Virus record (IMG/VR): IMGVR_UViG_3300044994_000219
Span: 1-58,655 of that record
DNA length: 58,655 nucleotides
DNA from: a virus
Strand: one strand, 5' to 3'
In this document: piece by piece, positions 1,792-43,039 of the stretch
Layout: every line of letters begins with the position of its first letter
How positions within the stretch are numbered: the stretch's first letter is position 1
Program-made: the position numbers and the translations under genes
Notes under the pieces: model-generated
What the model was told of the DNA's origin: nothing
The model's database searches: none
Seen by the model: the letters and a program-made list of their open reading frames with translations, nothing else

Positions 1792-1794
1792 CGG

Positions 1795-2331
1795 TCAGCA
1801 CTCCTTCAGGTTGTTGAGGCGGCAGAACTCGGCCACGTAGGCGTGGGTCAGCCAGGCGCTGGAGACGAGGGTCTCGCAGGTGTCCGGGTCGATCGTCTCG
1901 GAGAAGCCCGGCTTCGTGCGCGCCTTCTCGACCTGGGCGGCGATCCAGCTTTTCGCCGGGAAGTTGCGCCGGGCCGGCGCACCGGCTTCGCGCTTGCGGC
2001 GCCGCATGAGCGCCAGGGTGGCGGCGCCTGCGTCCTCGGGCAGGAGCGCCTGAATCGGCCGGCGCGCGGCGACCACTTCGGCGTGCTGGCGCAAGGCCAG
2101 AGGCGTGGCGCGGTAGATCCGGTACGTGTATTTCGGCACCGGGTCGGGCACCTCCTCGAATGTGGCCAAGTCGGCGATGCGCAAGGACTCGAGCGCCTTC
2201 ACTTTGTGGTTGTCCCAGGACCAGTAGGGGCGGGTGCGGACTTCGGCGCCCAGCACGAGCTGGCGCAGGTAGTAGATGGCGAGGTAGTCCCGGCGGTCGG
2301 CGCCGGAGGGCAGGGTGCGGGTGGTGATCAT
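1795..2331 (-). CDS. Hypothetical protein
   Basis: Internal Met of ORF 1795..2373 (MITTRTLPSGADRRDYLAIYYLRQL...). The hairpin at 2350..2370 and an RBS lie upstream. Confidence 0.7.
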   Translation of the reverse strand: MITTRTLPSGADRRDYLAIYYLRQLVLGAEVRTRPYWSWDNHKVKALESLRIADLATFEEVPDPVPKYTYRIYRATPLALRQHAEVVAARRPIQALLPEDAGAATLALMRRRKREAGAPARRNFPAKSWIAAQVEKARTKPGFSETIDPDTCETLVSSAWLTHAYVAEFCRLNNLKEC

Positions 2332-2378
2332 GGTGCGTACTCCAGAAGGAAGGGGAGCGGGGATCCCCTTCACGGCGA

Positions 2379-3278: not shown

Positions 3279-3360
3279 GGTGAATCTCCTCGTTTTTGCC
3301 CGTAAAGGGGCGGGTGGTTGATCCACGGAAGCGCCCGGGCGGGCCAGGCGCTTCGATTGA

Positions 3361-3711
3361 TCAGCCTGTGACGGCGTCCTTCGGCGGCAGCACCGGGGCG
3401 GCTTCCAGCACCGCGCGCACCTTGGCCGGGTCGCGCTCGGCGAGGAACTTGGTCCAGGTGCGCTTGGCGGCTTGCACGCGGTCGCCGCGGCAGGCGTGCA
3501 ACGTCAGGGGGCTAACCGTCGTGACGCGTTTGCCACTGCGCAGGTCGGAGACGACCAGCTGGTTGATCCGGTCGTGGGCCTCATGGACGAAGAACCAGAA
3601 CTCGGCACCAGCGACGGTGACCTTGAACTTGCGGCTCTCGACCTCGAGGGTCGCCGGCTTGTTGCGGTGGCGCGGCGCGCTGTTGTCGTACCTGATGCGA
3701 TAGGTGGGCAT
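3361..3711 (-). CDS. Hypothetical protein
   Basis: Clean 116-aa ORF (MPTYRIRYDNSAPRHRNKPATLEVESRKFKV...) with the SD GAGGAGA upstream. Confidence 0.8.
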   Translation of the reverse strand: MPTYRIRYDNSAPRHRNKPATLEVESRKFKVTVAGAEFWFFVHEAHDRINQLVVSDLRSGKRVTTVSPLTLHACRGDRVQAAKRTWTKFLAERDPAKVRAVLEAAPVLPPKDAVTG

Positions 3712-3759
3712 GTTGCTCTCCTCGGTAGTGGCGGGGAGCGGCGCTCCCCTTCCGGACGA

Positions 3760-4053
3760 TCAGGCCGCGACCTTCAGGCTCGGGGCCTGGCGCTCGCGGA
3801 TCTTGATGGTGGTGCGGGTGCTGGCGCGGCTGCAGGCGGTGATCTGCGCCGGGGTCAGCAGGCCCTTCACCTTCTTGCTGTCCAGCGTGACCGTGTCCGT
3901 GGTGGCCACCTCGATCTCGGCCAGGCGGCCGGTGTAGGTGCCGTCTCCTTCGGCCTTGAGCAGGGCCTTGATGGCGTCGAGCTCGGCGGCGAGCGGGGCG
4001 ATGGCGTTCTGGAGTTCCAGGGCGCGGTCCAGCAGCTTTTTCGTGATCTTCAT
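3760..4053 (-). CDS. Hypothetical protein (first gene of the leftward early operon)
   Basis: Internal Met of ORF 3760..4137 (MKITKKLLDRALELQNAIAPL...), preceded by the conserved leader and GAGGAGA. Confidence 0.8.
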   Translation of the reverse strand: MKITKKLLDRALELQNAIAPLAAELDAIKALLKAEGDGTYTGRLAEIEVATTDTVTLDSKKVKGLLTPAQITACSRASTRTTIKIRERQAPSLKVAA

Positions 4054-4310
4054 CGTGCTTCTCCTCGTTTTTGCCCGTAGAGGGGCGGGTTGTGGTTCAG
4101 AGCAGCACCCTCGGTGGAAGGCACTTGTCTCAACCAAGGGGAGTGCCGCTCCCCTTTGGTGCGAGGCCGGTATCGCCTCGGTGCCTCTGTCGCCTCGCCC
4201 GCTGCATCTTCACGGGGTCTTGGGGTCCGACGGATTGCAGCTCCGTCTCGGCATTCCCTTCTTACGGTCCGGGCTTCCGGTAGCAGGCGTTTCGTCCTGC
4301 TACGGTTCCC

Positions 4311-29900: not shown

Positions 29901-32900
29901 CGAAGGCGTACGGGGAGTACAACCGCAAGATCCTGGACAACATCAACGCGCGGATGGGCGACCCGAACGCGGCACTGCCGTGGCCGGACCATCCGGAGAG
30001 CGGGGTGGATATAACCGCGGCGATTCTCGCCCAACGTACGGACGGCCTGGAAAACCCGGATCAGTAACGGTTGTCGGGACGCACTTCTCCCGGCAGCAGC
30101 GTGCGACGCTCGCGGGGGCCCTCTTCGGTACCGGGCATGCTGCGGAGGAAGCCCGTCGCCTGGAAGGTGCAGATCCTGCGATTCGCAGTCGGATCTACTT
30201 CTACGTCGACGAAGGGAACGGTATTAACGCTGAGGCGGGTACCGGCGGCCACGCCCACGAAGTCGAACTGTCGAACCTCTACGACTGGGACACGGACAGT
30301 GAGGGGGTCGTCTCCCGTAACTACCGAGCGGGAGACCACCAGTCCGCGAACGTGGTGGAAAAGGCTCTGGTCGATGCCGGCTACGACGGCTACTACAAGG
30401 CCGCTGCATTCGGTGCGGCAGGCAAGACTCAAGGGGTTGCGGTGCTGCTCGGCAAGCGGCACCTTGGCGTACCGGTGGCCTACCTCGGTCAGGGTGACGG
30501 CAAGATCCCGGCGCGGCCCGGCGCCAAGCCGGTCAAGACGGACACCGTCAGCCCGGTCACCCAGGCCAAGGAACTGGCCGCCCGCGCCCGGGCGTTGAAG
30601 GGGCTGCCGGCCGGGGAGTTGCCGGCCAGCCGCTGGCGCGACATGCTGGCGGGCGCAGACGAGGAGGTCTTCCAGGCCTTCGACAAGGCGGGCCTCCTCG
30701 ACGGCGAGGAGCGGGTGTATCTGTCGGAGCTGGCCGGGCGCTACGTGCGGCAGGCAGCGGCAGGGGAGGTGGTGCGCAGCCCGACGCGCACCCTGGAGAA
30801 GGAGAATCAGGTCTCCATCACGGTAGGGGGCAAGCCGGGCGAGTTCGGCTGGTCGCCGGCGGCGAAACTTGCGGCCGCGCAGCAGGAGCCGGCGATGGAT
30901 CCGGCGAAGCTGGAAGGTAAGGAAGTGCCGCCCTTCGTAGGGCCGACGCAACAGCGTCCGAGCCTTGAAGCAATCGGGGAAGCGGTGCGCAAGGTGCTGG
31001 CTGCGAAGTCGGCGCGTGACACGATCGAGGCACTGACCGGGGCTCGGATCACCGGGGTGGCCCAGATCGCAGGGTCGTGGGAAGGCAAGCCGGAGCCCAG
31101 CTTCGTGCTGACCGGGGAGATGTCCTTCGAGCAGGCCAACGAGGCGTCGAAGGTGCTGGGCTTCTTGATGGCCCAGGACGCAACGGTGGCCGCGCAGCCG
31201 TGGTTTGAAGAGGCGGACGGTCAGATCCCGGCGATCCTGATCAGCCAGAACAAGGTGATGACGGCCGAGCAGGTTCAGCGCCTGGCCGATGCGGCGCGGG
31301 CCGCCGGGCTTGACTATAGTACAAGTGTGGATGGCCGCGGTGCCAAGTTCCTGCACTTCGGCGATCAGGACGGCTATCTCGCGCTGCGCGCAGCAGTCGA
31401 TGAAATTCGCAAGGCGGCGGGCTTGAAGGAGCTCACCGACTTCTATGTCAGGAGCAACCTGAATGACGCAGAAACGTATCTCGAAGGCGGAGTGGGAAGC
31501 CTTCTTCGCGAAGAACGGGATCAAGCCGGCACCGGCGGACCATCCGATCTATTCCGAAGGGCCGTCGATTCAATTCTTGTCCCGTACGCAAAAGCCGTCG
31601 GAGCAGAAGGCTATCGTTTCTCCCCAGAGCGATATGGCCGACGATTCGGCCTGACCGACGCAGAGGTCGAGTACATCCGCGCGGCGCTGCGCCCGAAGTC
31701 GGGCAAGGCGCTGAGCACGGTGCCGATTGTCACCGGTGCCGAGAAACTCGAGCCGCCGCGCAACAACACGCGCACCAAGCCTTCGAGCGTCTCGAAGAAC
31801 GACCTGTTGTGGGCCTTGCAGAACCGCGCGGCCCGGGTGGGCTTCATCGAGCCGGGCGACTACTCGCCGGAGGCACGCAAGGTTATCGCCGAAGGTCTGG
31901 CCGACGAGGTGATCTACAACCTGGGCAAGGAGTCTGGCAAGAACGCGGTGGGCTGGTACGACGCCGCGATCAAGAAGGCCAAGGCCCAGTACGAGGAGGT
32001 CTTCCCGGAGCTGCGCCAGGACGCGGACAGGGAGATGCTCTTCGATGCGATCCTCGGCATTGCCAGCCAGGGCAACGACGTACATTCCAACGCGGTCTTC
32101 GCCGGCCGGGTCTATTTCTTGATGACCCGGGAGGGCATGACCCTGGGCGAGGCGGTGAAGACCTTGTCCGGCACCTTCGGCAAGCAGACCGTCGCCATCG
32201 AGAAGAACTATGCCAAGCTCCAGCATCTGCTCGATGCGAACGGCTACGACCGGGCGCGAGCCTTCTTCAACACGAAGGCAACCGTCGGCGAGCTCAACGC
32301 TATCCTGCGCAAGGACACCAAGCTCTACGGGCCCGACGGCAAGCCATTGAAGATCGAGGGGGCCGCCGAACAGACGGTCACCGGCTGGATGGTATTCGGG
32401 CCGAAGATCGGATCCTTCATCAACAACCTGCACGGTGACTACTCGATCCTGACCGCGGATCTGTGGTTCTCCCGGACGTGGAACCGCATGCTGGGCTTCG
32501 TTTTCAACCACAAGGCGGACAAGGAAAACGACCAGTACGTGAAGCTGTACCGGGCGATGGTCGAAGAGGCGCGCACCGGCAAAGGGCGCGACCTGGTCGG
32601 CACGTCCCTGGAGGAGATCGACGCCTGGGCGGCCGACCCCGAGTCGATGCTGACTTTCGCGCGCCAGGTGCATCTCAAGCGGGAAGCTGAGTACAAGGCG
32701 ATCCGCGACGAGGCGGTGACCCCGCTGCGCCAGGCGGCGAAGAATCTGCTCGAGAACCGCGAAGAGGCGACCGAGATTCCGCGTACCGATCAGGAGCGGC
32801 ACTTCCAGCAGACCACCGTCGAGGCGGCGCAGAAGATCATCCGTCGCAAGACCGGCGTGAACATTTCGATTGTCGACATCCAGGCCGTGCTCTGGTACCA

Positions 32901-35900
32901 CGAGAAGGATCTCTACAAGTCCTTCGGGGTGGGCGACTCCAAGGCGGAAGCCGCGGACTATGCGGACGCGGCGCGCCGCTTCGTCGAGCGGTTCCAGGAG
33001 GGGGATCTCTTCTACGTCGAGAAGCCGAAGCCGCGCTACGTGTGGGGCGAGAAGGGCAGCTATCTGAAGGACCAGGCGGCGGGCGACCGGCCGGCCATCC
33101 TGCGCAGCCCGCGCCGGTTACTGACCGCGGCCTGGTCCAAGCTGGCCGAGAGCCCGGACGTGTTCCAGTATCCGAAGTCGGACGCGGACACGATGCAGGG
33201 GGTGTTCAAGGATCTCGGTGTCGGATTCACCGTGTCGGAGCGCTTCGTCCTCTCCGACAAGGAAACTCGCCGCGGCGTAGTGAAGAAGTGGATCGTGAAG
33301 GGGCCCGACGGCCGGGAGGCGGAAGTCTTCCGCAACAAGAAGGACGAGATCTGGGTCAATGCCTCTGCGCTGAAGGTCGGTGTGAGCCGTGGCGCCGCGC
33401 TCTACGCGGGCCTGCTCAACTACGCCTACAACAGCCTGGGCAAGCTGATCGGTGACCCGCTGGGGGTCTCCGACATGGCGATCTTCCGCCGCACCGAGAA
33501 CATGCTCTCCTCGGCCCTGAAGTTCGGCACCACTGAGCACATGGCACCGGCCAAGGAGCAGCAGAACCCCGCGTTGTTCGCCGGCACGATGGGCCACACC
33601 TCCGGCGTGACCGAACAGTTCAAGCCTCTGGCCTGGTCGGATGACCACCAGGAAAACCTCGCCAACCTGCTGGAAGTGAGTTATGCTCACGTTACAAGGT
33701 TCGTGCCCGAGGTGAAAGATGCCTACTACGACTTCAACACCGGCGAGTTCCGCTGGTCCGCTACTGATCGACCTCTTACGCGAGGAGATTTTGAACGGCT
33801 TGCCCGTGCGCTTCGTCGCGGGCTGGGTGATCCAACCGTCGGAGTGGGAGGAGCTGAGCCTGCAGGATCGGATTCGGTACCGGCTCTCCGCCCTGGCGCA
33901 GTACGGGGAGGCGCAACGCTGCAAAGAGCAATCCTCACACATACCCTTCTACGCGCAGCGAGCAGCGAGGACGGGGGACGATCTAGTCTGGCTGCGATTG
34001 GCGGGGAGCTACGAGGGGGACTGGGACGGGAGGGACAGGCACCTGCTGGATCTGGCGCCGACCTTTCCGGAATCCTCTACTCCAAAACCCGACTATCGGT
34101 ATCCGACAACGGAAGAGGGGCTGTTCACGCCACCTCTGAAGACCTCGCCCGAGCAGGCTCAGTACCAGGTGCCGTCTTCGCCACCGACGCAGGACCGCGA
34201 GTAACAGAGCGCCTGGCGATTGGCGTCGATCGCGTCACCACCGCAGAGGAAGCGGCGCACGTCCTCGCAGCCATGCGCCGCAACGCGGAAGAGAAATTCC
34301 AGGTGCTGGTGCTCGATGCTGAGCAAAAGCCGATTGCCGTCCTGAACCTGTTCGCCGGTGCGACGAGTCAGACCTCGGTGTTCCCCGGGGTGGTCGCCAA
34401 GGCGGTCTATGAGACGCCAGGGGCTGCGACGGTCTGGTACGCCCACAATCACCCTTCGGGTAGTCCGGTACCCAGCGACGCGGACTTGCGAATGACCCGG
34501 GCCCTCTCCACGTCCTTCGGACCGGGTACCAGTATCGAGGTGGGCGGGCATGTCATTCTGGCAGGTACCCGGTACGGCGCCCTCGAAGGGGAGACGGGTA
34601 ACCCCTTGCCGGGTGGTGCTATCAAACCCCGCGCACGGAACAAGTCCGTGCCGGTGACGGTGCGCCGCATCAAGAAGGCCGGCACTTTGGCGGATGCCAT
34701 CACCAGCCCGGACGAGGCGCCGCAGGTGATCGAGAGGGTCGCCCAGGGCAAAACCGGTATCGTGTTTGCCAATGCGGCCAACGCCCCGGTGGCCTTCCTA
34801 CCGATGTCCGCCGAGCAGATGCAGGCCTTGCGCGACGGTAGCAGTGCCCGCACCCTCTTCGGTGCCGCAGCCAAGGCCAATGCCAGTGTGGCCTTTTTGT
34901 ACTTCGACCGGTCCGTGGGCAGTGCGAAAGCTGATCGCGCCCAGCGCAACCTGGCTCATGCCCTGAACGCGCGGGATGTCCGGATGCTGGACGCCTTCTT
35001 CTACAACCGGGACGGCGACCTGACCAGCATGGCCGCTCGGGGGATCCTGGAAAGTGGCGACGGGGACGGCATCTTCCGGAGCGCCGCCCGTATCCAGACC
35101 GCGGCCTTCCCGGCGCCCGCGCTGCCCGACTCCCGCAGCAAGCGCGTGCTGGACAAAGTGATCTACAACCTGCAGGACCGCCTCGTCGATCTGAAGGAGA
35201 TCCAGAAGTCGATCGAAGCAGCCGGCCGCACGATCCGCGACGAGTTCAACCCGTACATGGCCGAGACCCTGATGCACGGCAAAGCGGCCTACCGGGTGCA
35301 GCACTTCCTGGAGCAGGAGATCGAGCCGGTGCTGGCCCTGATGCGCGGGGCGGGCATCTCGGTGGAGGAGTTGAACCGCTACCTGCACGCGCGCCACGCG
35401 GCCGAGCGCAACGCCGCGATGGCCAAGCGCAACCCGAACCAGGACGAGCTCGACCAGCTCATCCAGGACGCAGGCGAAGAGCTGCTGGATGCAGAGCTGG
35501 CTGCGTCGGCCGACCCGACGGACGGGGCCGCGCAGCGCCGGGTGATCCGCGCGCAGACCCGCCTCGATGCGCTGCGTGCGGCCAAGCCCTGGAGCGGTAC
35601 CGAGGAGGAGCGCCAGCGCCTGTCCGGGATGAGCAACGACGAGGCCAAGGCGATCCTGGACGCAGCGCACGGCGGACCAAAGGCTGCGGTCTATCGCAAG
35701 CTGGGCCAGAAGATCGACGCCATTACCGGCCAGACCCGCAGCGAGATGGCCGCCTACGGACTGGAGTCACTCGAGATGGTCGGCGCGATGGACCAGGCCT
35801 ACGACCACTATGTGCCCCTGCACCGGGACATGGACGAGTCGGACCTGCTCGACACGATGGGTGGCACCGGACGGGGCTTCTCCATCCGAGGCTCCCAGGT

Positions 35901-37911
35901 CAAGCGGGCGACCGGCTCGCTGCGCGCCGTCGAGAACATCCTGGCCAACGTGGTCGCCCAGCGCGAAGCCACGATCGTACGTGGCGAGAAGAACCGCGTG
36001 GCCAAGGCGCTCTATGGGCTCGTGATGGAGCATCCGAACGCTGACCTCTACACCGTCGTGCGGCCGGGCATGCCCGAGAAGCAACTGCGCACCGAGCTCC
36101 AGTCGATGGGTCTCGATCCGGCCACTGTCGATACTATGGTGAAGGCGCCGATGGTCTCCGTGATCAACGAGCGCACGGGCCTGGCCGAGCGTCGGGTCAA
36201 TCCGATGTACTCGCGCCTGGACAATGCGGTCGTCCTGCGGATCAACGGCGAGGATCGCGTGATCCTCTTCAACAAGAAGAGCGACCGCGCGGTGCGCCTC
36301 GTGCGGGCGCTGCGCAACGACGACGCGGAAAGCGGTGGCAGCCGCTTCATCATGGACCACATCGGGCCGATCACCCGCTACCTGGCAGCCATCAACACCC
36401 AGTACAACCCGATCTTCGGCCTGACCAACTTCGTCCGGGACTTGCAAAGTGCGGCCCTGAACCTGGAGACCACCCCGATTGCGGACCACAAGGCGCAGCT
36501 GGTCGGCAACATCCCGGCGGCAATCCGCGGCATCTGGAACTGGGAGCGTGGCGACCGGCAGCACTCGTGGGCCAAGCTCTACGAGGAGTTCCTGGCTGAC
36601 GGCGGGGCCACCGGGTACCGGGACGCTTACGGCTCTCTGGCGGACCGGGCCGCGGCCATCGAGCGCGACCTCGGCAAGACGGGTCTGCGCAACGCGGCCG
36701 GCATTCGCCAGGTGCTGACCCTCCTGTCCGACTACAACACCGCGGTGGAAAACGCCACCCGCCTGGCGGCCTACAAGGCGGCCCGCGACGCCGGCATCAG
36801 CCGGGCCAAGGCGGCGGACCTGGCCAAGGACATCACGGTCAACTTCAACCGCAAGGGCGCCCGCTCCGGGTTCTGGGCGAGCCTCTACGCCTTCTTCAAC
36901 TCAGCCGTGCAAGGTACGGAGCGCACTGTCCGCGTGCTGCGCGGGCCGACCGGGAAGAAGATCCTCGGCGCCGGCGTCGCGCTGGGGGCGATGAACGCGG
37001 CCCTCGGCATGCTGCTACTCGGAGATGACTGGGACGAGATCCCGGAGTTCGAGCGCGCCAAGCACCTGATCCTGCCGCTGCCCTGGACCGAGCAGAAGTA
37101 CGTCAAGATCCCCTATCCGCTGGGCTACAACGCGATCCCGAATGCCGGCCGCTCTGTCGTGGAGATGGCGGTGTATCGTGACCGCCTTGGCGAACGGGGC
37201 CTGGCACTGCTCGGAGAGACGCTGGACGCCTTCAATCCGATCTCGGCCAGCACGATGGTCGGGATGGTGATGCCGTCCGTGCTGGACCCGGCGGTCGAGC
37301 TGGCCTCCAACCAGGACGCCTTCGGCCGCCCGATCAGCAAGGAGGATCTCTCGCCGCTGGACCCGACGCCGGGTTTCACCCGTGCGCGGGAGGGCACTGC
37401 CGGGCCGTTCAAGGCACTGGCACAGGGCATCAACGCGGCCACCGGCGGGGACGACTACGCGCCGGGTCTGTGGAGCCCGACGGCCGAGCAGATCTCCTAC
37501 GTATTCGGGGTGGCCACCGGCGGCCTCGGGCGGGAGGTCGAGAAGTTCGTCGCGACCGGCGAGGCGACGGTCAAGGGCGACCCCCTGCCTCCGTACAAGA
37601 TCCCGGTGGTGGGGCGCTTCTACGGGGAGGCCGGCGGCGACAACGTGATCCGCAAGCAATATTTCGATGCGATCCGCGAGGTGAATATCGCCGAGAACCA
37701 GCTCAAGGGCCGGGCCCGGGATGGCAAGGACATCGACGGCTTCGAGCTTGGCGCCCTGGCGCAGACCAGCCGGCGGTTCCAATCCGTAATCGGCGCCCTG
37801 CAGAAGGAAGCCCTGCGGACCCGGGACCGGGAAGAGCGCAAGCGCATCAACCGGGAGATCGTGAATCTGCAGCGCCAATTCGTGGATCTGGTCGCGCAGA
37901 GCAGGCCGTGA
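26911..37911 (+). CDS. Giant 3666-aa multidomain (polyvalent-type) virion protein
   Basis: One uninterrupted 11-kb ORF. HEVGH zincin motif at aa 768-772 (29212..29226). RadC-like JAB motif AHNHPSGSPVPSDADLRMT at aa 2511-2529 (about 34441..34497). PVVGRFYG (PLxRFG-like) at aa 3565 onward (37603..). It sits at the end of the structural block. Confidence 0.9.
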   Translation: MSKLAEFREKNPAYKDVPDENLAPALHRKFYSHIPQDEFYRQIGFGEKQAPGLIKQGIAAVGSLRQRMQAETNENRATSGVPEGPDSPDEQNRAILAYQKREREAAVRGELALRQSEVPADGYFPDNQSRAPGAVDRPVAERRIRERNLAAGRTTGEVVSDAAGAVGAGMQQILASFVGLFAPDSETAERMQRAAQAADGNLSPFLQARLEEARERIQAAAQDGLWDEVKVAADEYLTDPTLFSYFALRTMPSMLGVLGPAKLAQAAAAMRGASAAQIAKVTAGAAGAANAGMTGGDARQQAYDTIYQALREQGVPDEEARARALEESRLSAGVGAVLGWLGGKYGAEAGMLGLGAGRTAAGRAAGVIAGETGTELAEELAPQLLTNSLASRIDGRNPLEGLGETAAQTVAGIGPMATAGAVGAARQPATEADAAGRDLADLVEGAQFVQPADQAARQLLDPENAQLTEVPDAAASLDATGDQGQGANPRGGAGLARDGGEGAAGGSGAAGEAAPGGGAGMALGDPAGQSTAGVVDPLDQLLLEREAAAIETGDPIEVLVAQAEGAALRAAAGPREAAGAALLGFPQSPQVESAKEVPALPRSEIRADGTLYVAAPVEAVQNLTQALGVTGLAGKLLRTRNNETVVSAKTAGQVNAALRYALEPFQYSAQDQADVELLARAQGARPGAIQLVTPDALPATVQGASDARLSAADAIFLGRVLGANARSLVLFRADPKEVGLGGAIIRGRTGKVFLNVAGAINPVAEAVHEVGHSIRRENEGAYQAYLSALASTQALDMSDGALISWAQANFDGGVTSLDGALKAAGVANRDALLEEFVMDATGRASVRPGFWDTVFDELSKTNPSALQAFIQGMKALAARLRQELFQRGARFAGIEKHIRDLEKLTELAGRYYAQGAKAAGQKVSDAHAEAGTVVASKQRIGPFAKAESARATQEWHARQGVQYEIEQTPEGVFLARVGDTNGQASSAQGTGAGLARREGVRGVQPQDPGQHQRADGRPERGTAVAGPSGERGGYNRGDSRPTYGRPGKPGSVTVVGTHFSRQQRATLAGALFGTGHAAEEARRLEGADPAIRSRIYFYVDEGNGINAEAGTGGHAHEVELSNLYDWDTDSEGVVSRNYRAGDHQSANVVEKALVDAGYDGYYKAAAFGAAGKTQGVAVLLGKRHLGVPVAYLGQGDGKIPARPGAKPVKTDTVSPVTQAKELAARARALKGLPAGELPASRWRDMLAGADEEVFQAFDKAGLLDGEERVYLSELAGRYVRQAAAGEVVRSPTRTLEKENQVSITVGGKPGEFGWSPAAKLAAAQQEPAMDPAKLEGKEVPPFVGPTQQRPSLEAIGEAVRKVLAAKSARDTIEALTGARITGVAQIAGSWEGKPEPSFVLTGEMSFEQANEASKVLGFLMAQDATVAAQPWFEEADGQIPAILISQNKVMTAEQVQRLADAARAAGLDYSTSVDGRGAKFLHFGDQDGYLALRAAVDEIRKAAGLKELTDFYVRSNLNDAETYLEGGVGSLLREERDQAGTGGPSDLFRRAVDSILVPYAKAVGAEGYRFSPERYGRRFGLTDAEVEYIRAALRPKSGKALSTVPIVTGAEKLEPPRNNTRTKPSSVSKNDLLWALQNRAARVGFIEPGDYSPEARKVIAEGLADEVIYNLGKESGKNAVGWYDAAIKKAKAQYEEVFPELRQDADREMLFDAILGIASQGNDVHSNAVFAGRVYFLMTREGMTLGEAVKTLSGTFGKQTVAIEKNYAKLQHLLDANGYDRARAFFNTKATVGELNAILRKDTKLYGPDGKPLKIEGAAEQTVTGWMVFGPKIGSFINNLHGDYSILTADLWFSRTWNRMLGFVFNHKADKENDQYVKLYRAMVEEARTGKGRDLVGTSLEEIDAWAADPESMLTFARQVHLKREAEYKAIRDEAVTPLRQAAKNLLENREEATEIPRTDQERHFQQTTVEAAQKIIRRKTGVNISIVDIQAVLWYHEKDLYKSFGVGDSKAEAADYADAARRFVERFQEGDLFYVEKPKPRYVWGEKGSYLKDQAAGDRPAILRSPRRLLTAAWSKLAESPDVFQYPKSDADTMQGVFKDLGVGFTVSERFVLSDKETRRGVVKKWIVKGPDGREAEVFRNKKDEIWVNASALKVGVSRGAALYAGLLNYAYNSLGKLIGDPLGVSDMAIFRRTENMLSSALKFGTTEHMAPAKEQQNPALFAGTMGHTSGVTEQFKPLAWSDDHQENLANLLEVSYAHVTRFVPEVKDAYYDFNTGEFRWSATDRPLTRGDFERLARALRRGLGDPTVGVGGAEPAGSDSVPALRPGAVRGGATLQRAILTHTLLRAASSEDGGRSSLAAIGGELRGGLGREGQAPAGSGADLSGILYSKTRLSVSDNGRGAVHATSEDLARAGSVPGAVFATDAGPRVTERLAIGVDRVTTAEEAAHVLAAMRRNAEEKFQVLVLDAEQKPIAVLNLFAGATSQTSVFPGVVAKAVYETPGAATVWYAHNHPSGSPVPSDADLRMTRALSTSFGPGTSIEVGGHVILAGTRYGALEGETGNPLPGGAIKPRARNKSVPVTVRRIKKAGTLADAITSPDEAPQVIERVAQGKTGIVFANAANAPVAFLPMSAEQMQALRDGSSARTLFGAAAKANASVAFLYFDRSVGSAKADRAQRNLAHALNARDVRMLDAFFYNRDGDLTSMAARGILESGDGDGIFRSAARIQTAAFPAPALPDSRSKRVLDKVIYNLQDRLVDLKEIQKSIEAAGRTIRDEFNPYMAETLMHGKAAYRVQHFLEQEIEPVLALMRGAGISVEELNRYLHARHAAERNAAMAKRNPNQDELDQLIQDAGEELLDAELAASADPTDGAAQRRVIRAQTRLDALRAAKPWSGTEEERQRLSGMSNDEAKAILDAAHGGPKAAVYRKLGQKIDAITGQTRSEMAAYGLESLEMVGAMDQAYDHYVPLHRDMDESDLLDTMGGTGRGFSIRGSQVKRATGSLRAVENILANVVAQREATIVRGEKNRVAKALYGLVMEHPNADLYTVVRPGMPEKQLRTELQSMGLDPATVDTMVKAPMVSVINERTGLAERRVNPMYSRLDNAVVLRINGEDRVILFNKKSDRAVRLVRALRNDDAESGGSRFIMDHIGPITRYLAAINTQYNPIFGLTNFVRDLQSAALNLETTPIADHKAQLVGNIPAAIRGIWNWERGDRQHSWAKLYEEFLADGGATGYRDAYGSLADRAAAIERDLGKTGLRNAAGIRQVLTLLSDYNTAVENATRLAAYKAARDAGISRAKAADLAKDITVNFNRKGARSGFWASLYAFFNSAVQGTERTVRVLRGPTGKKILGAGVALGAMNAALGMLLLGDDWDEIPEFERAKHLILPLPWTEQKYVKIPYPLGYNAIPNAGRSVVEMAVYRDRLGERGLALLGETLDAFNPISASTMVGMVMPSVLDPAVELASNQDAFGRPISKEDLSPLDPTPGFTRAREGTAGPFKALAQGINAATGGDDYAPGLWSPTAEQISYVFGVATGGLGREVEKFVATGEATVKGDPLPPYKIPVVGRFYGEAGGDNVIRKQYFDAIREVNIAENQLKGRARDGKDIDGFELGALAQTSRRFQSVIGALQKEALRTRDREERKRINREIVNLQRQFVDLVAQSRP

Positions 37912-38301
37912 TCAGTCCCGCTGGACCGGCTCGATGCGGTCGATCTCAACCCGATACACGGTGCCGGTCCAGCGGTCCAGGAGGAAGCTGACGGCTGCGT
38001 CCTGGGGTGCTGTGATGTCGTACCGGAACAGCCAGACGCCGAGTAGCAGGGCAGCCAGGCCCCGGTAGTGATGGAGGCGCATGTCGGTTCTCCTGTTCAA
38101 GGCTGGTAGCGAATCGTACCAAAAGGCCGGAACCCCTTGCCGCACAAGGGATTCCGAGTCCGGCCGGGCGGCCAGCTTCTCGGCCACGGTGCGCGGGGCC
38201 ATGTTCAGGTACTGGGCGATGTCCTCCGCGGTCCAGAGCCGCTGCTCGTCGGGGATGGTCACCTCGGTGACGATGCGGCGGATCAGCTCTTCGATGGCCA
38301 T
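37912..38301 (-). CDS. HTH (Xis/AlpA-like) protein with C-terminal hydrophobic segment
   Basis: Internal Met of ORF 37912..38445 (MAIEELIRRIV...LWTAEDIAQYLNMAPRTVAEKL) with a GGAG SD. Its stop abuts the giant gene stop inside TGATCA. Confidence 0.6.
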   Translation of the reverse strand: MAIEELIRRIVTEVTIPDEQRLWTAEDIAQYLNMAPRTVAEKLAARPDSESLVRQGVPAFWYDSLPALNRRTDMRLHHYRGLAALLLGVWLFRYDITAPQDAAVSFLLDRWTGTVYRVEIDRIEPVQRD

Positions 38302-38723
38302 TCGACAAGCTCCAGGGTGACACCGGTGTCGCGGAAGATGGACTGGGCCTCGGTGATGTCCTCCGCCCACCGAGTCGCGAAGTCCGGGGCGGGCCGGGGG
38401 CACACCACCCGCGTGATGCCGGCCTGGGAGATCAGGGCGGCGCACTGGCTGCAGGGGTGGTGGGTGACGTAGATCGTGCAGCCAGAGAGGTCACGCTGGG
38501 CGAAGAGCACTGCGTTGCGCTCGGCGTGAATCGTGCGGCGCAGCTTGGCCTCCCGGCTGATTGTCGGGTCGTCCTGCATGCCGGCCGGTGGCCCGTTGAA
38601 GCCCTCCGACACCAGGATCTTGCCGCGTGTGATGCGGGCGCCGACCTGGGTGGAGGGATCCTTGGACCACTTCGCGACTTCGTGCGCCATGTGAAGATGG
38701 CGAGCGTCCCATTTAGTCAGCAC
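38283..38723 (-). CDS. dCMP/cytidine deaminase
   Basis: HAERNAVLFA...THHPCSQCAALI is the zinc-binding HAE...PCxxC signature. Confidence 0.9.
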   Translation of the reverse strand: MLTKWDARHLHMAHEVAKWSKDPSTQVGARITRGKILVSEGFNGPPAGMQDDPTISREAKLRRTIHAERNAVLFAQRDLSGCTIYVTHHPCSQCAALISQAGITRVVCPRPAPDFATRWAEDITEAQSIFRDTGVTLELVEWPSKS

Positions 38724-39291
38724 GGAACACCCCTATGATCGTGACGGACGGGCGTTCCCTCTCGAAGGTTCGCAGCGCGTCTCCCAGGGAAGGTGCCTGT
38801 ATCAAGAAAGTGCAGAATCCGCCGTCCGGCTCTCGCCAGTAGTTGACGCACCAGGTCGGGGTGTCAGCCGCCGGCTTTTCCCGCAGCGTGGTCTCCACGG
38901 CCGCCTGCTCCGGGGCGACATCCGGTGTGCCGGTCTGGCACCCGGCGGCTGACGTTGATCCGGCTTCCTGGGCGCGCAGGTGCAGTTCCAGCTCGGCCAG
39001 GCGGTTCCAGGCCTCGTGCGCCAGGTGCAGAAGATGGGAGTCGCGGTCGCGCGGCTCGAAGCCGCGGGCCAGGCGGTGGCGGTCGCCGGCGGCACGATAG
39101 CGTTGCTCCCCTTCCGGGACACGCTGCCAGCCGCCCGGGCTGTACTTGCGCGCGCCGAAGGTCGAGACCTCGGCGACGGCCAGCAGGGCGCGGCTAAAGC
39201 CGTCCAGGGTGAGGTCGGCGCGCAGCTTGCCGTCGTCCAGCTTGGCGCCAGGTGCGGAAGGGGCGAGGCCGTTGGGGTCGCGTTCTTGCAT
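38713..39291 (-). CDS. Putative dNTP pyrophosphohydrolase-like (DUF5664-like N-terminal domain) protein
   Basis: KLDDGKLRADLTLDGFSRALLAVAEVSTFGARKYSPGGW...RYRAAGDRHL resembles the phage dATP/dGTP diphosphohydrolase N-domain as I remember it. The C-terminal half is unknown. Confidence 0.6.
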   Translation of the reverse strand: MQERDPNGLAPSAPGAKLDDGKLRADLTLDGFSRALLAVAEVSTFGARKYSPGGWQRVPEGEQRYRAAGDRHRLARGFEPRDRDSHLLHLAHEAWNRLAELELHLRAQEAGSTSAAGCQTGTPDVAPEQAAVETTLREKPAADTPTWCVNYWREPDGGFCTFLIQAPSLGDALRTFERERPSVTIIGVFRAD

Positions 39292-42200
39292 CAATCCTCC
39301 TTCATGTAGCGGTCGTGGTGAAACCCCGCGGCGGCCAGCGGCAGGCCAGTCGCCCAGGGTGGATCGGTGGCGAGGAGCTCGACCATGCGGTCCTCGTTCA
39401 GAGAAACAGGGGCCTCGGCGACCACCTCGTCATGGACGGTCATCACGATGTCGTAGCCGGCCTGCTCGATGGCGGGCATGTTGTAGGCCAGCACGTCGCG
39501 GGCCAGGGTCTGGCACACGTTGCCGGTGAGCTTGCCGCCGTGGGTGAAGGTACGCTGCCAGATGCGCGGGCCGCCTTCTTCGGAGCTCAGCGCCCAGTAG
39601 GCCAGGCTCTTTCGCACGCGCAGCTCGTCGCGCTCTTCGTCGTACTCCTCGGCCTTGATGATGTGCGGGTGGAAGTAGCAGAGGCGGTTGCCACTGGGCA
39701 GCAGGATCTGCAGCCAGAGGTGCCCGGCGTGCTCGCGGCAGCTCAGCTTCAGGCAGGTGACTTCATGGACCGAGCCGGGAAACTCGATGGCCTTGATGGC
39801 AGCTTCCTGCAGCGCGTACCAGAAGGTCACGGTGGCCGGGTGTCGTGCGCGCCAGGCGAGCTTGCAGGCCTCGGAGGCGAGCCACTCGAGTTCGCTGATC
39901 TCGAGGTCGGCGATTTGCTTCTTCGCCCACCCCTTGGCCAGGTTCTTGCGGGCCTTGGCAATGATGGCCGGGTCGATCGACTGCTGGATCGTGTCCCAGT
40001 GATCGGCCATCCGCACACCGTAGGCATGGGCGAAGTTCTGAAAGCCTGCCACCCCTCCTTGGTAGCCGCAGTTATGGACGAGTAGCCAGCCCTTCTCCGT
40101 CAGGATCGTGAATCGGTTCCGCGGCCCTGCAAGTGCAATGTCGAAGACGGGCTTCAAGCTCGGCGATTCGAGCTTGAAGTTGCTGGACGCTACGTCGGTT
40201 GTTGATGTTGGCCTGTTTGGTGATGAAGCGAAGGTTGTTCGGTTCGTAACCTCGGTCAACGTCGATACGATCCAGCTCCAGGTCTGGGCGATTCCAGCCT
40301 TCCAGGGAGATGAGGTACGCGAGGAAAGCCCGCCGGTCGGACTCCCAAGCAGGCCAGACCCGGATGCCTCGCCCTCCGTAGTTGGGATAGGCCGCGTCGT
40401 TAGGGTTTCGGCATCGGTTGATACAGGATGCGATTCGGTTGAGCAACCGCCGTCGGTGACCGTCGTCAGGGACGAGGTCCACGTAACCCCAGTAGTGCTT
40501 TCGTGTGTCGGTGGCTTTCTGCTTTGCGCACCGGTTGCAACGCGTTGTTCGACCGTGTCGCAGATTCGCCTCCAAGACCGCCACATCGTTTCCGCATGAG
40601 CATCGGGCGAGAACCGCACGGATCCCGCCGCCGGAGCCTCTCCGAAAGCCGACCACGGTAAGCTCGCCGAAGCGGTCGCCAATGCTTGGCTCAGGGTGTT
40701 TTCGCACGTAGCGAGTACCCCGGCCGGCGTCCAGGTTCGCCCTGTTCTGATCAAATGATCCGGCGTTACTTCGATGCCTGCCACACTGACAACCTGGCGC
40801 ACACTTCGCGCGACCACTCCTTGGTGATTCACCCATTCTACACCATCCCAAACCCGGTCATCGGGTTGAACGTCAACGATTCGTTTAAGGCCTCGATCCG
40901 TCAGAACCGGGGTGTCTTCGGCAAAACAAGCGAGGTCGGGCACCTTGCCGAAGACGTTGCGGACCTTCTTCGGCACGTTCCACGGATCTACACCGATGAT
41001 CATGTTGGCGGTGATGTTGTAGAGGTCCGGGCCGGTGCCGGCGTCGTAGGCGCGGAAGGCCTCGAGCTTCCACTCTTCGCGCGCCACCCAGGCCAGCATG
41101 CGGCCTTCGATGTTGGAGAGGTCAGCGGCGACGATGTGGCGGCCGGGCGGGGCCGTGACGACGCCGCGCAGGGCGGCCGATCCGTACCACATCAGGTTGT
41201 CGAAGCAGACGGTATGGACTTCGGCCTTGACTGCGGCGATGTAGGCATCGACCAGCTTGGCCTTCGGCAAACCCCGGCTGGGCAGGTTCTGCGGCTGGAA
41301 CATGCGACCGCCCCAGCGCCGGGTGCGGCCCGCGCCGGCGAACTGCAGGCCGCCACGGAAGCGTCCGTCGGCCCCGATGGCCGGCTGGATCCGGGCGTAC
41401 TTGGAGGTGCTGGTCTTGTTGGTGGCCAGCGCAATGTCGAGGAGCTCGGCCAGATCGCTGTCGTCCGGCACGCGCTTGCGCACGGTGCGCAGCGTCTCGG
41501 CCTGGGTGTTCTCGAGTTCCAGGCCGTGGTGCTCCTTGAGGAAGGCGCGGAACTGATCGCGCTGGGTGGCTTTCGCTACGCACCCGCCGGTGAGCTCGGC
41601 GAAGCGGGTTGCCATCTGGCGCTTTTCCTCCTCGGTGGTGCGCACCGCGGCATCGACCAGTTCGCGGTCGCAGTAAAAGCCCCGATCGTTGATCTGCTGG
41701 TCGAGCAACCACAGCGCGTGTTCGCGCGGGCCGAGATTCCAGTCCGGCATCCGGCGGTCACATTCCCGCATGGCCACGATGTCCATCTCGGCGTAGCGCA
41801 CGAAGCGGGCCCACAGCTCCGGGTGCGTGGTGTGGTCGTAGCGGCGCCGTTTGTGGTTGGCCGGCGCCGGCTTGCAGAAGCGCTGAATGAGCTTCTTGCC
41901 CTCGGTAATCTTGGCCTGGTCCTCGCGCAGCCCGAGCACACGGCCCAGGGTGTCCAGGTCGCCGGGCAGGGCGTGGGCCAGGGCCTTGACCATCGTGCAG
42001 CGCCACACCGCCGGCGTGAGGAGGCGGTCGCGCTCGGCTGCGGTCAGGATGCCCATGCGGTACAGGGCGCGTGGTACGACGTTGCGATCGAAGGCGCTGT
42101 TGTGGGCCGTGATCAGGGACGGGTTACGCAGCACCGCCAGCAGGTCCGCAGGGATCGGCTCGCCCTCTGCTGGCGACCACCGGCGCACCGGCCCGTCGCC

Positions 42201-42317
42201 GATTGCGTAGGTGGCGAGAATGACCTCGGTGCTCGGGTGGTCGGCGTAGGCGTAGGCGCCCACAACCTCCAGATCGACCTCGCTGAAGGTCTCCGAGTCG
42301 AAGTAGACGCGGGTCAC
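39291..42317 (-). CDS. Family-A DNA polymerase with 3'-5' exonuclease domain, interrupted by an intein
   Basis: YFDSETFS (Exo I), HNSAFD (Exo II), and pol motifs RTRRWGG..QPQNLP, SNIEGRMLAW and TVHDEVV. GTG start overlaps the upstream stop. The intein is at aa 464-749. Confidence 0.92.
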   Translation of the reverse strand: MTRVYFDSETFSEVDLEVVGAYAYADHPSTEVILATYAIGDGPVRRWSPAEGEPIPADLLAVLRNPSLITAHNSAFDRNVVPRALYRMGILTAAERDRLLTPAVWRCTMVKALAHALPGDLDTLGRVLGLREDQAKITEGKKLIQRFCKPAPANHKRRRYDHTTHPELWARFVRYAEMDIVAMRECDRRMPDWNLGPREHALWLLDQQINDRGFYCDRELVDAAVRTTEEEKRQMATRFAELTGGCVAKATQRDQFRAFLKEHHGLELENTQAETLRTVRKRVPDDSDLAELLDIALATNKTSTSKYARIQPAIGADGRFRGGLQFAGAGRTRRWGGRMFQPQNLPSRGLPKAKLVDAYIAAVKAEVHTVCFDNLMWYGSAALRGVVTAPPGRHIVAADLSNIEGRMLAWVAREEWKLEAFRAYDAGTGPDLYNITANMIIGVDPWNVPKKVRNVFGKVPDLACFAEDTPVLTDRGLKRIVDVQPDDRVWDGVEWVNHQGVVARSVRQVVSVAGIEVTPDHLIRTGRTWTPAGVLATCENTLSQALATASASLPWSAFGEAPAAGSVRFSPDAHAETMWRSWRRICDTVEQRVATGAQSRKPPTHESTTGVTWTSSLTTVTDGGCSTESHPVSTDAETLTTRPIPTTEGEASGSGLLGSPTGGLSSRTSSPWKAGIAQTWSWIVSTLTEVTNRTTFASSPNRPTSTTDVASSNFKLESPSLKPVFDIALAGPRNRFTILTEKGWLLVHNCGYQGGVAGFQNFAHAYGVRMADHWDTIQQSIDPAIIAKARKNLAKGWAKKQIADLEISELEWLASEACKLAWRARHPATVTFWYALQEAAIKAIEFPGSVHEVTCLKLSCREHAGHLWLQILLPSGNRLCYFHPHIIKAEEYDEERDELRVRKSLAYWALSSEEGGPRIWQRTFTHGGKLTGNVCQTLARDVLAYNMPAIEQAGYDIVMTVHDEVVAEAPVSLNEDRMVELLATDPPWATGLPLAAAGFHHDRYMKED
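40071..40928 (-). mobile_element. Intein (286 codons) within the DNA polymerase
   Basis: N-terminal Cys plus FAEDTPVLT (block A), GIEVTPDHLIRT (block B), VFDIALAGPRNRF...GWLLVHN followed by Cys (blocks F/G). Confidence 0.85.
40072..40851 (-). CDS. HNH/AP2-type homing endonuclease encoded in an alternate frame inside the intein
   Basis: IGDRFGELTVVG, CSCGNDVAV, RCNRCAKQ, YPNYGGRGIRVWPAWESDRRAF and LDRIDVDRGYEPNNLRFITKQANINN are typical phage HNH endonuclease motifs. The start is uncertain (TTG 40851, ATG 40836 or GTG 40707). Confidence 0.65.
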   Translation of the reverse strand: MGWCRMGESPRSGRAKCAPGCQCGRHRSNAGSFDQNRANLDAGRGTRYVRKHPEPSIGDRFGELTVVGFRRGSGGGIRAVLARCSCGNDVAVLEANLRHGRTTRCNRCAKQKATDTRKHYWGYVDLVPDDGHRRRLLNRIASCINRCRNPNDAAYPNYGGRGIRVWPAWESDRRAFLAYLISLEGWNRPDLELDRIDVDRGYEPNNLRFITKQANINNRRSVQQLQARIAELEARLRHCTCRAAEPIHDPDGEGLATRP

Positions 42318-42658
42318 AGGCGAACCCCGATGGTGCGCGCGACCAGCCCACCGAAGCCGCGCTTGGCCGCTTCCCGGCGCAGGCGGTTGGCGCGCTGGCG
42401 CAGTCGGGGATCCGGGCGGGCCGCGTCTTCCCGGTCGTGCATCGACCAGGCCAGGATCGGGTAGGTCGGGCCTTGCTTGCCGCGACCCCAGCGGGCGACA
42501 TAGACCCCTTCGACCTTGCGCGCGAGCTTGATGTACTCACGGGCGTTGCGCACGGACAAGCCGAGGAGCCGGGCCGCTCTGTGGTGGTCGTGCTGCTCGC
42601 CGCGGCGCAGAGCGGCGAGGAGGATGCGGAGGTGTTCGCTTTCGGTTCGGAGGTACAT
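42314..42658 (-). CDS. HTH (Fis-like) hypothetical protein
   Basis: 114-aa ORF. AARLLGLSVRNAREYIKLARK is HTH-like. Its stop overlaps the polymerase start. Confidence 0.7.
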   Translation of the reverse strand: MYLRTESEHLRILLAALRRGEQHDHHRAARLLGLSVRNAREYIKLARKVEGVYVARWGRGKQGPTYPILAWSMHDREDAARPDPRLRQRANRLRREAAKRGFGGLVARTIGVRL

Positions 42659-42688
42659 GGTGTGCTTGTCGTCGTTGTCTCGGTCGAT

Positions 42689-42788
42689 TGTGGGTGGCCG
42701 GACTCGAACCGGCGCCGACTGCGCCAGGATCCCCCAGCTGCGTCACGGGCGCTCCCGCCCCAGGCTCTACCAACTGAGCTACACCCAC
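42689..42788 (-). tRNA. tRNA-like gene 1 (100 nt) with about 27 extra nt and no recognisable anticodon loop
   Basis: The minus strand reads GTGGGTG-TA-GCTC-AGTTGGTA-GAGC ...50 nt... GCCGG-TTCGAGT-CCGGC-CACCCAC-A. The acceptor, D and T arms are perfect. I could not fold the middle region into a 5-7-5 anticodon arm. Confidence 0.5.
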
Positions 42789-43039
42789 ACGGCTGCCTCC
42801 TCGCGTTGTCTGTGCCGAAGCGGTAGTCGGCGCAGGCTCCTGCCTCTCGTGGGCTCGGCCTGCTTTTGCGAGGGGGCATGCGTGTAGGTGCCGGTCTCTC
42901 CCGACTGTCACTGCTGAGTCCCCATGTCCTTGGCGTGCAATTCGCCTGTGTTAGCTCCGCATGGTAGAGGTGCTTTCGCCCGCCGCAGGCTTGGCAGTCT
43001 TCCAGAGGTCTTTCGACTTGTACGGCTTCGACAAATTGT

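Follow-up and report, generated by a model that had tools for sequence, protein, structure and literature searches.

Introduction

Inteins are usually pictured as a single polypeptide that combines a splicing domain with an endonuclease domain. In actinobacteriophages, inteins have been described whose endonuclease is encoded in another frame or on the opposite strand, among them an endonuclease VII-like open reading frame (ORF) "in frame 3" and antisense LAGLIDADG- or VSR-like ORFs, and it was proposed that these inteins were invaded by free-standing phage endonuclease genes (Gosselin, Arsenault & Gogarten, bioRxiv 10.1101/2025.01.02.630785). A cyanobacterial dnaX intein carries a LAGLIDADG ORF in the +2 frame (Phillips, DeSimone & Gogarten, bioRxiv 10.64898/2026.09.14.751524), and passages in both of these reports credit Gorbalenya (1998) with the idea of an out-of-frame endonuclease. 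The ShiLan case is a mycobacteriophage DNA methylase with an HNH insertion hidden in another frame (Arsenault et al. 2025, PMC11855218), and in fractured genes split inteins flank a free-standing endonuclease gene (Dassa et al. 2009, PMC2677866). For the HNH enzyme I-HmuI, the catalytic residues are D74, H75 and N96 (PMC12724721). Here, we analyze IMG/VR virus record IMGVR_UViG_3300044994_000219, a 58,655-nucleotide stretch of viral DNA (the window), in which the gene for a family-A DNA polymerase contains an intein, and the intein in turn contains an HNH-like ORF in a different reading frame.

This arrangement had been noticed in an original prediction made from the letters of the window, and the polymerase ORF, the intein blocks and the second frame were all recovered at the coordinates it gave. 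The prediction left three explanations standing (a free-standing endonuclease gene overprinted inside a mini-intein, paired compensating frameshifts that had just uncoupled the endonuclease, or programmed frameshifting) and knew of no described case of any of them, a statement that is outdated given the out-of-frame intein endonucleases of the actinobacteriophage and dnaX reports cited above.

Results

Two coding frames within one polymerase intein

The polymerase precursor is encoded on the minus strand by a single frame of 1008 codons in the ORF list (39291..42317) that runs uninterrupted across the intein. It matches the PHROG DNA polymerase family phrog_17 (E=6e-89), and its match to the Pfam model DNA_pol_A (E=7e-7) lies under the model cut-off. 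As translated, the N-extein (40929..42317, minus strand) ends ...RNVFGKVPDLA, at a junction whose equivalent is read straight across in intein-less relatives, and the C-extein with the stop codon (39291..40070, minus strand) begins CGYQGGVAGF. By our reading, this insertion site (site 1) would fall within the R..GK...L...YGG region, corresponding to motif B (the O-helix) of family-A polymerases. The intein itself (40071..40928, minus strand) comprises 286 codons, residues 464-749 of the precursor, from Cys1 to Asn286, and both the translation and the invariant residues confirm the extent originally predicted for it. It begins CFAEDTPVLT at Cys464, includes GIEVTPDHLIRT and closes VFDIAL...GWLLVHN, after which comes Cys750 (40068..40070). 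Three parts can be distinguished in the polymerase frame, all on the minus strand: an N-terminal splicing region with blocks A and B (40713..40928), running from CFAEDTPVLT through GIEVTPDHLIRT to W..A, in which the polymerase frame is the selected frame; a read-through linker of ~183 codons rich in Ser, Thr, Ala, Gly and Arg (40164..40712); and a C-terminal splicing region with blocks F and G (40071..40163), running from PVFDIALAGPRNRF to LLVHN.

In an alignment of 22 homologues, intein residues C1, T55, H58, D263, H285 and N286 are invariant. They include the block A nucleophile (Cys464 of the precursor, the first intein residue) and both ends of the block B T-x-x-H motif, which reads TPDH in the window; block G is likewise present, with LLVHN followed by C750 in the window and Cys or Ser at the +1 residue in all loci. 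A profile built from the 22 homologues gave weak matches (E=0.003-0.06) to solved inteins, namely the Neq (Nanoarchaeum) Pol split intein, RecA mini-inteins and a DnaX mini-intein. From the motifs and the presence/absence pattern among relatives, we accept the insertion as an intein, predicted to be of the HINT type and class 1. The layout of a split intein or fractured gene was not found, the polymerase being a single 1008-codon ORF in the window and one ORF in 66 of 66 relatives as well.

The second frame lies on the same strand as the polymerase at an offset of +2 nt (= -1). The mechanically called ORF of this frame covers 40072..40851 (minus strand) and begins with a TTG at 40851; counted from a conserved ATG, the nested gene covers 40072..40836 (minus strand), with 254 codons and a TAA stop. 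The proposed start codon (40834..40836, minus strand) consists of the last base of intein residue Glu31 (GAA) and the TG of the invariant Trp32 (TGG). A Shine-Dalgarno-like sequence, GGGATGGTG (40841..40849, minus strand), which comes from the W-D-G codons of the intein, lies 5-13 nt upstream of this ATG, and the stop is formed from the His-Asn codons CAT AAC. The ORF encodes IGDRFGELTVVG, a CxC...CxxC motif, NYGGRGIRVWPAW and LDRIDVDRGYEPNNLRFITKQANINN. Its conserved core, residues 50-235 (40132..40689, minus strand), is defined by the invariant columns of alignment A1 and has AlphaFold2 pLDDT (predicted local distance difference test) scores of 73-96. It holds a zinc-ribbon-like CxC...CxxC motif with four invariant Cys (CSCGNDVAVLEANLRHGRTTRCNRC; 40528..40602, minus strand) and an HNH-like beta-beta-alpha motif (LELDRIDVDRGYEPNNLRFITKQANINN; 40198..40281, minus strand) in which Asp189, Asn201 and Asn210 are invariant; Arg190 stands at the canonical position of the catalytic His, an equivalence drawn from motif comparison and not from a significant alignment.

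The meaningful stretches of the two frames had been described as abutting rather than overlapping. This is correct for the domains, but the ends of the nested gene do overlap: its start and first 45-50 codons overprint the N-terminal splicing region, and its last 25-30 codons overprint the C-terminal one. The first 45-50 residues would be a by-product of the N-terminal splicing domain (pLDDT is below 55 for residues 1-30), and the last 25-30 (RLRHCTC...) are a by-product of block F.

Selection acts on different frames in different parts of the intein

For the analysis of selection, we used a codon alignment of 66 unique homologous inteins. The polymerase frame contains no stop codon in any of the 66, and in 63 the nested frame runs without interruption from the conserved start until it reaches a stop where the intein ends or just ahead of that point; the defects in the other three are an internal stop (L031) and a stop just past the usual start (L025 and L084). 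By codon-position entropy, the most variable site is position three of the polymerase frame over intein codons 0-60 and 255-286 and position three of the nested frame over codons 75-255. Nei-Gojobori medians over 62 pairs follow the same division. With the polymerase frame given first and the nested frame second, dN/dS is 0.23 and 1.8 in the N-terminal splicing region, 1.34 and 0.08 in the center, and 0.19 and 1.8 in the C-terminal splicing region. The pair formed by the window and its closest relative, a contig from another metagenome (L005), shows the same pattern as the medians. Entropy and dN/dS together place the frame switches at intein codons ~60-75 and ~255, or ~40748-40703 and ~40163 in the window, close to the predicted positions near 40705 and 40150 though not identical with them. 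For the center of the window alone, the GC fractions at codon positions 1/2/3 (0.64/0.49/0.68) are coding-like in the nested frame and not in the polymerase frame.

We then asked how many polymerase-frame stops a nested protein of this sequence would entail, holding the protein fixed and resampling its codons synonymously with local extein codon usage. Resampling leads one to expect 2-10 polymerase-frame stops in the central 180 codons, and a stop-free frame has a probability of 0.03 in the window and of at most 0.01 in most relatives. Given these expected stops, the zero observed and the dN/dS values, the polymerase frame across the center is kept merely open, selected solely to stay free of stops and with no constraint on its amino acids, whereas the nested frame over the same DNA is under strong purifying selection for its protein.

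The two-frame layout is shared by isolate phages and viral contigs

The entire polymerase gene with its flanks (7,027 nt) is 100% identical in the Logan assembly of run SRR30649430, which may share the source of the window; the matching contig is listed for two samples and carries the exact 1008-amino-acid polymerase. Independent evidence comes from L005, in which the nested protein is 85% identical to that of the window and the two-frame layout is the same. A megablast search with the polymerase gene against 50,697 phage records gave no match, and relatives were found at the protein level. The layout is common to EBPR siphovirus 2, Pseudomonas phage MR14, Vibrio phage 97.13 and Salmonella phage vB-SeS-01, a Jerseyvirus in which the gene is annotated as "intein-containing DNA polymerase precursor"; in these four phages, the polymerase coding sequence (CDS) is continuous and an HNH-like ORF of ~250 codons lies at offset +2 within the intein. 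Roughly 170 genomes of isolate phages, from many different sequencing laboratories, show the layout. A scan of IMG/VR gave 406 matching stretches, of which 80 loci were fetched for a check of the layout, and in 80 of 80 an ORF of 460-1280 codons, one nucleotide downstream of the HNH-like frame, spans the entire HNH-like ORF. A collection of 5.8 billion proteins contains 236 nested-protein homologues of ~250 amino acids, mostly from contigs of ~1 kb. The original prediction had proposed an alignment to related phages to see whether their HNH ORF is in frame; in both the isolates and the IMG/VR loci, the relatives keep it out of frame.

Public annotation of these loci is uneven. The record of Salmonella phage LPSE1 (KY379853, L085) gives the nested ORF only, as a hypothetical protein and without the polymerase, and that of VT223 (PP280813, L093) labels the whole polymerase "endonuclease". 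In our annotation check, which also took in L004 and L086, most records list the polymerase only, and none was seen to list both genes. Annotation pipelines overlook or mishandle nested genes of this kind.

The proposed nested start codon is conserved beyond codon usage

The gene-called nested homologues all begin with MG at the position of the conserved ATG. Across the 66 inteins, this position holds ATG in 50, GTG in 14, and TTG and CTG in one each; the synonymous codon usage of the flanking exteins predicts 18.9 ATG. The residue before Trp32 varies (Glu, Ser, Ala, Gln, Lys or Arg), yet its codon ends in A, with TCA for 11 of 11 Ser and GCA for six of six Ala. The 15 nt upstream of the start contain GGGAYGG, contributed by the W-D-G codons. 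Duplex formation of this upstream region with the 3' end of 16S rRNA is calculated at -10.2 kcal/mol in the window, with a median of -6.9 kcal/mol over the 66 inteins versus -2.5 kcal/mol for the extein background, and 7% of background windows pair as strongly; the complementarity above background is suggestive only.

We also looked for signals of frameshifting. No X_XXY_YYZ heptamer is present at the frame transition in the window, and those in 16 of the 66 relatives are scattered over at least seven different positions and are not conserved. An Rfam scan of 38000..44000 found no frameshift element and no intron. Because start codons are in excess (50 ATG versus 19 expected) and no slippery site is conserved, a separately translated, overprinted gene is favored; with moderate confidence, we infer that it is initiated internally on the polymerase mRNA.

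The nested protein belongs to a very large phage superfamily

Homology at the center of the intein resides in the nested ORF, which matches PHROG families labeled HNH endonuclease (phrog_374, E=3e-39; also phrog_3377 and phrog_2081). The polymerase-frame linker has no protein family of its own. The reverse pattern, real homologues for the linker and no HNH hit for the alternate frame, is what the original prediction had named as counting against it. The AlphaFold2 model of the nested protein has an overall pLDDT of 77, rising to 91.5 for residues 120-240. The predicted fold consists of a zinc-ribbon-like N-terminal part, helices, a strand-strand-helix unit and then a coiled-coil helix, with the strand, strand and helix extending over LELDRID...LRFIT...QANINN at pLDDT above 90. 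In a structural search of BFVD, 98 entries matched at E<=1e-3. These are free-standing proteins of phages, annotated as HNH endonuclease, AP2/ERF-domain protein or DNA-binding protein, and the nested ORF of phage LPSE1 ranks first. At E<=1e-3, the superfamily of the nested protein comprises 106,217 representative proteins.

Some relatives combine the domain with other modules. Two free-standing proteins, P0121 (604 amino acids) and P0122 (402 amino acids), have five and three tandem IGDRFG...CxCG...CxxC modules, respectively, before a single C-terminal HNH-like domain. In P0169 (451 amino acids), a SNF2-type helicase runs in frame from its LTGTPL motif into the HNH-like domain, with no intein N-terminal domain, possibly as an intron-ORF fusion or a ShiLan-type insertion. 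An Rfam search around three free-standing relatives found no group I intron, and we therefore do not claim that the relatives are intron-encoded.

Related inteins use another frame and a second insertion site

In Streptococcus prophage-like phages (the Javan255 group) and in Gardnerella phage vB_Gva_AB1, a homologous intein at site 1 holds its HNH-like ORF in the +1 frame. The loci are those of Streptococcus phage Javan255 (L090, polymerase 1179-4061) and vB_Gva_AB1 (L092, polymerase 862-3765). These ORFs have an ATG of their own at the start of the domain (MVGEQYGW...); the codon ahead of Trp32 has C or T as its last base, and the ATG derived from Trp32 is therefore absent. Ruminococcus phage NatCom_29429 (L096, polymerase CDS 1124-3514) carries a mini-intein of ~140 amino acids without a nested ORF at the same polymerase site, which is either an uncolonized state or one that followed loss.

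A second polymerase intein, at ...YGGKL|C...LIVHN|CEN..., is found in L032, L040, L046 and L058, where this second "HN|CEN" junction lies near the polymerase C terminus, and in Caulobacter phage GB2A (L097, polymerase CDS 1207-4158). It holds a +1-frame ORF of ~190-230 codons from the same YGGRGI / L(D/E)R.DN superfamily, with a GTG or ATG start preceded by GGAAGG- or GGGAGG-type motifs. The polymerase of L040 contains two inteins, each with an out-of-frame HNH-like gene; in the window, the second site is empty (GGKLTGNVCQ).

Among the best 150 matches in a library of 1.84 billion representative proteins, there is no full-length polymerase with an in-frame HNH-like part. The sole in-frame case in those 150 (P0170, locus L094) is a polymerase broken by a single shift. 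In this locus (ENA ERZ25039473 contig_91067, 411-4165), the N-extein, the N-terminal intein part (IntN) and the HNH-like part share one frame that ends at a stop, and the C-terminal intein part (IntC) and the C-extein lie in another frame with an ATG ~30 codons ahead of block F. A Cys-rich ORF of 121 amino acids also interrupts the polymerase upstream, making L094 perhaps an exception to the rule of a single polymerase ORF. The locus may reflect faulty assembly, a pseudogene or a split intein of natural origin.

The site-1 element is sporadic among near-identical polymerases. A query made of the spliced Jerseyvirus junction is uninterrupted in about 524 phage records and split in about 170 close relatives, whose exteins are more than 90% identical; the element is thus precisely present or absent. 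In addition, the GC content of the intein is 59.4% versus 67.1% for the exteins, and its GC at third codon positions is 0.52-0.76 versus 0.88-0.90. Both values lie below those of the exteins, which points to acquisition of the intein from a lower-GC source to which it has not yet ameliorated.

Neighborhood of the polymerase in the window

The polymerase lies in a phage replication module with a dCMP deaminase, a dGTP-diphosphohydrolase-like protein, and RdgC-like and Cas4-like exonucleases. Converging on this module is a giant ORF of 3666 codons (26911..37911, plus strand), typical of phage giant proteins, which matches phrog_14770 and for which the matching Logan gene call has the Pfam domains LPD37, RadC and LPD38. 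Just upstream of the polymerase operon, Rfam tRNA models match at 42689..42788 and 43040..43116 (both minus strand; 46 and 35 bits, respectively), and ARAGORN reported no tRNA at either of these tRNA-like matches. The first has 46 nt at the anticodon arm, versus about 18 expected, and is therefore an interrupted or degenerate tRNA-like element.

Discussion

The architecture of this locus, a continuous polymerase frame with a second ORF nested in the other frame at the center of the intein, is established with high confidence. We consider it probable that the whole is a mobile polymerase intein whose endonuclease has a gene of its own, written in the +2 (= -1) frame over the loop between blocks B and F. 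Ribosomes on the polymerase frame would read the center as an unstructured linker, and the precursor would splice as a mini-intein to give active polymerase. The nested 254-amino-acid protein would be made independently from the same mRNA by internal initiation at the ATG ahead of Trp32, perhaps with the aid of the weak Shine-Dalgarno-like GGGAUGG that the W-D-G codons provide. This protein, a putative zinc-ribbon and HNH-like beta-beta-alpha protein from a very large free-standing phage "HNH/AP2" family, would recognize intein-less polymerase alleles in co-infecting phages and cut or nick them, and repair would then copy the intein together with the nested gene (homing). As to origin, it is most likely that a mini-intein was colonized by a free-standing homing-endonuclease gene. 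Of the three explanations first offered, it is the overprinting of a free-standing endonuclease-like gene in a mini-intein that holds, favored by the frame-specific selection and the conserved start.

Several observations weigh against this view of the element, and many of them would suit a nested protein that is inactive as a nuclease, a DNA-binding protein with an inactivated HNH-like fold. Nested translation, protein splicing and DNA cleavage are all steps that we infer. Neither curated intein model that gave a match, TIGR01445 (E=0.035) or Pfam Vint (E=0.041), reached its cut-off. The structure of an intein alone also explains the Shine-Dalgarno-like sequence and the Trp, a similar DG..WV being present in the Nanoarchaeum split intein, and a scan of 39900..41500 found no terminator and no promoter among the sigma-70-type sites that it covered. 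The nested protein had been called a clean HNH/AP2-type endonuclease; the PHROG match bears out the HNH label, but the Pfam and NCBIfam HNH or AP2 models match neither the window protein nor 16 homologues nor 10 distant multi-domain relatives. Sequence-profile searches of the PDB (A1, A3) gave non-significant zinc-ribbon and coiled-coil noise only, including Cox5B-type zinc ribbons, and Foldseek with the full model gave noise only. With a domain-only model, the top PDB matches are HNH nucleases (4h9d, ScoMcrA, PacI, ColE9, McrA and Cas9 HNH), all non-significant at E>=1.3. Where HN(H/N) enzymes have their catalytic, general-base His, the D-R-I-D motif has an Arg (D189-R190) that is invariant in 28 homologues and in free-standing relatives, that is, family-wide, and Arg, Asn and Cys, residues typical of DNA binding, make up most of the invariant positions. 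A protein without nuclease activity might be regulatory or associated with replication, might recruit another nuclease or might give the element some other advantage. We nevertheless regard its inactivity as unlikely: the ORF sits exactly where intein endonuclease domains usually sit, the intein is scattered sporadically among polymerases that are nearly identical, the superfamily is very large and exists in phages mostly as free-standing genes, and its members occupy at least two different polymerase inteins, all of which would be expected of a self-propagating homing gene; the metal-site motif, Asp189 with Asn201/Asn210, is invariant too. Because of the Arg at the position of the catalytic His, nuclease activity is an assumption, which we hold from context with moderate to low confidence.

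The remaining alternatives concern the frames. Programmed -1 frameshifting after block B could yield an N-extein-IntN-HNH product or, if a further slip restored the original frame, a canonical intein whose endonuclease is in frame. The nested frame is indeed the -1 frame of the polymerase, so that a single -1 slip is geometrically possible, and the transition zone (40703-40748) is short. Yet the slippery heptamer is absent from the window and scattered in just 16 of 66 relatives, no Rfam frameshift element is present, the internal ATG or GTG is conserved above the expectation from codon usage, a different shift would have to be invoked for the +1-frame homologues of Streptococcus, Gardnerella and Caulobacter phages and of second inteins, and the whole intein would be restored only by two efficient shifts, which leaves this mechanism highly improbable. 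To the idea that an intein with an in-frame HNH domain underwent two compensating frameshifts, leaving the endonuclease frame as a fossil, we give still less credence. One or two single-base indels would interconvert the states, L094 does have IntN and the HNH part in one frame, and three of 66 relatives are damaged (L031) or have lost the upstream start (L025 and L084). Decay, however, does not fit a nested dN/dS of 0.08 and a frame intact in 63 of 66 unique inteins that are just 30-45% identical in the polymerase frame, nor the lack of an in-frame full-length version other than the broken L094 among the best 150 library matches; and a layout kept among such divergent inteins, in phages of Proteobacteria and in many metagenomes, does not support an endonuclease that has "just" been uncoupled, as the original prediction had allowed. 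Frameshifting and recent decay are thus both disfavored by the +1-frame relatives, the second-site inteins, the mini-intein and the absence of an intact in-frame version, and we favor the view that free-standing genes colonized mini-inteins on more than one occasion, or changed frame but remained separate genes. An ancient frameshift origin is possible and would be a question of history, not of present function. Two single-base indel errors could in principle mimic the layout, but sequencing or assembly error is ruled out by its conservation across isolate phages and viral contigs, and the identical 7,027 nt in another assembly listed for two samples also speaks against it; the probability that we assign to an artifact is negligible.

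Beyond an overprinted homing gene at this one site, a broader and more tentative reading is that out-of-frame nesting is a stable, repeatedly evolved strategy by which one very large phage "D-R-I-D" HNH-like family colonizes mini-intein loops, borrowing its starts and ribosome-binding sequences from intein codons (xxA-TGG at Trp32 and GGN-TGG-GTG at the second site), with in-frame fusion selected against. Were this true, in-frame fusion might be disfavored, for example, so that the dose and timing of the nuclease are not tied to polymerase synthesis, and some phage family-A polymerases (such as that of L040) would carry two composite elements in two different frames. Whichever way the frames arose, the locus adds a very large and easily cultured example, in Salmonella Jerseyviruses and their relatives, of the two functions of an intein encoded as separate genes on shared DNA. 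It makes testable the entry of endonucleases into pre-existing mini-inteins ("splicing first"), the expression of a gene nested in an actively translated essential gene, and the reason why the endonuclease stays out of frame. The nested family itself, with about 10^5 representative sequences, no Pfam HNH assignment and an Arg for the catalytic His, is of biochemical interest.

A full-text literature search found no description of the family-A polymerase intein or of its nested gene, Jerseyviruses and SETP3 included. The element resembles the actinobacteriophage inteins in having its splicing blocks in the host frame and the endonuclease ORF between them in another frame, with the host frame open and the in-frame stretch lacking recognizable structure. 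The hosts differ, being terminase, minor capsid, thymidylate synthase and DNA polymerase III alpha genes there and a family-A polymerase here, as does the endonuclease, which in the actinophage set is endonuclease VII-like and matched to PDB 1E7D and here belongs to another family. The actinophage set comprises a few dozen inteins, whereas the present layout is found in at least 406 viral contigs and about 170 isolate phages of Proteobacteria, Firmicutes and Actinobacteria, for which we additionally describe a switch of the selected frame, a conserved start that overprints the splicing domain, the use of either of two other frames, and insertion at two sites. With the dnaX intein, the polymerase intein shares a same-strand, out-of-frame endonuclease, a dN/dS that, where the frames overlap, is low for the endonuclease and inflated for the host frame, the existence of mini-intein relatives and a proposal of secondary invasion. 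The dnaX element, by contrast, is cellular, on a cyanobacterial chromosome, and encodes a LAGLIDADG enzyme, whereas ours lies in a phage polymerase and encodes an HNH-like protein with Arg in place of the catalytic His.

In ShiLan, too, the host gene is open through the insertion and an alternative frame encodes an HNH-type endonuclease, but no splicing domains are present and the insert stays in the host protein; here, intein blocks flank the insert, which is presumably removed. Fractured genes also have the endonuclease as a separate gene beside the intein halves and not as an intein domain, and this separateness, there and here, supports the model in which splicing came first and the endonuclease invaded later. 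Their host gene is split into two ORFs joined by trans-splicing, whereas the polymerase is one contiguous ORF and its endonuclease gene is overprinted rather than intercalated. With canonical phage inteins that have an in-frame HNH domain, the nested gene shares its position between blocks B and F, and its LDRID...NLRF...N..N motif resembles the HN(H/N) motif of free-standing or intron-encoded HNH enzymes such as I-HmuI. Unlike both, the nested protein is encoded outside the intein polypeptide, has no Pfam HNH match, carries Arg for His and has relatives with repeated zinc-ribbon modules. Out-of-frame intein endonucleases have thus already been described, and the polymerase element adds a very widespread case, with three traits for which the others have no reported counterpart: a start codon that overprints the splicing domain, the use of both alternative frames and two insertion sites in one gene.

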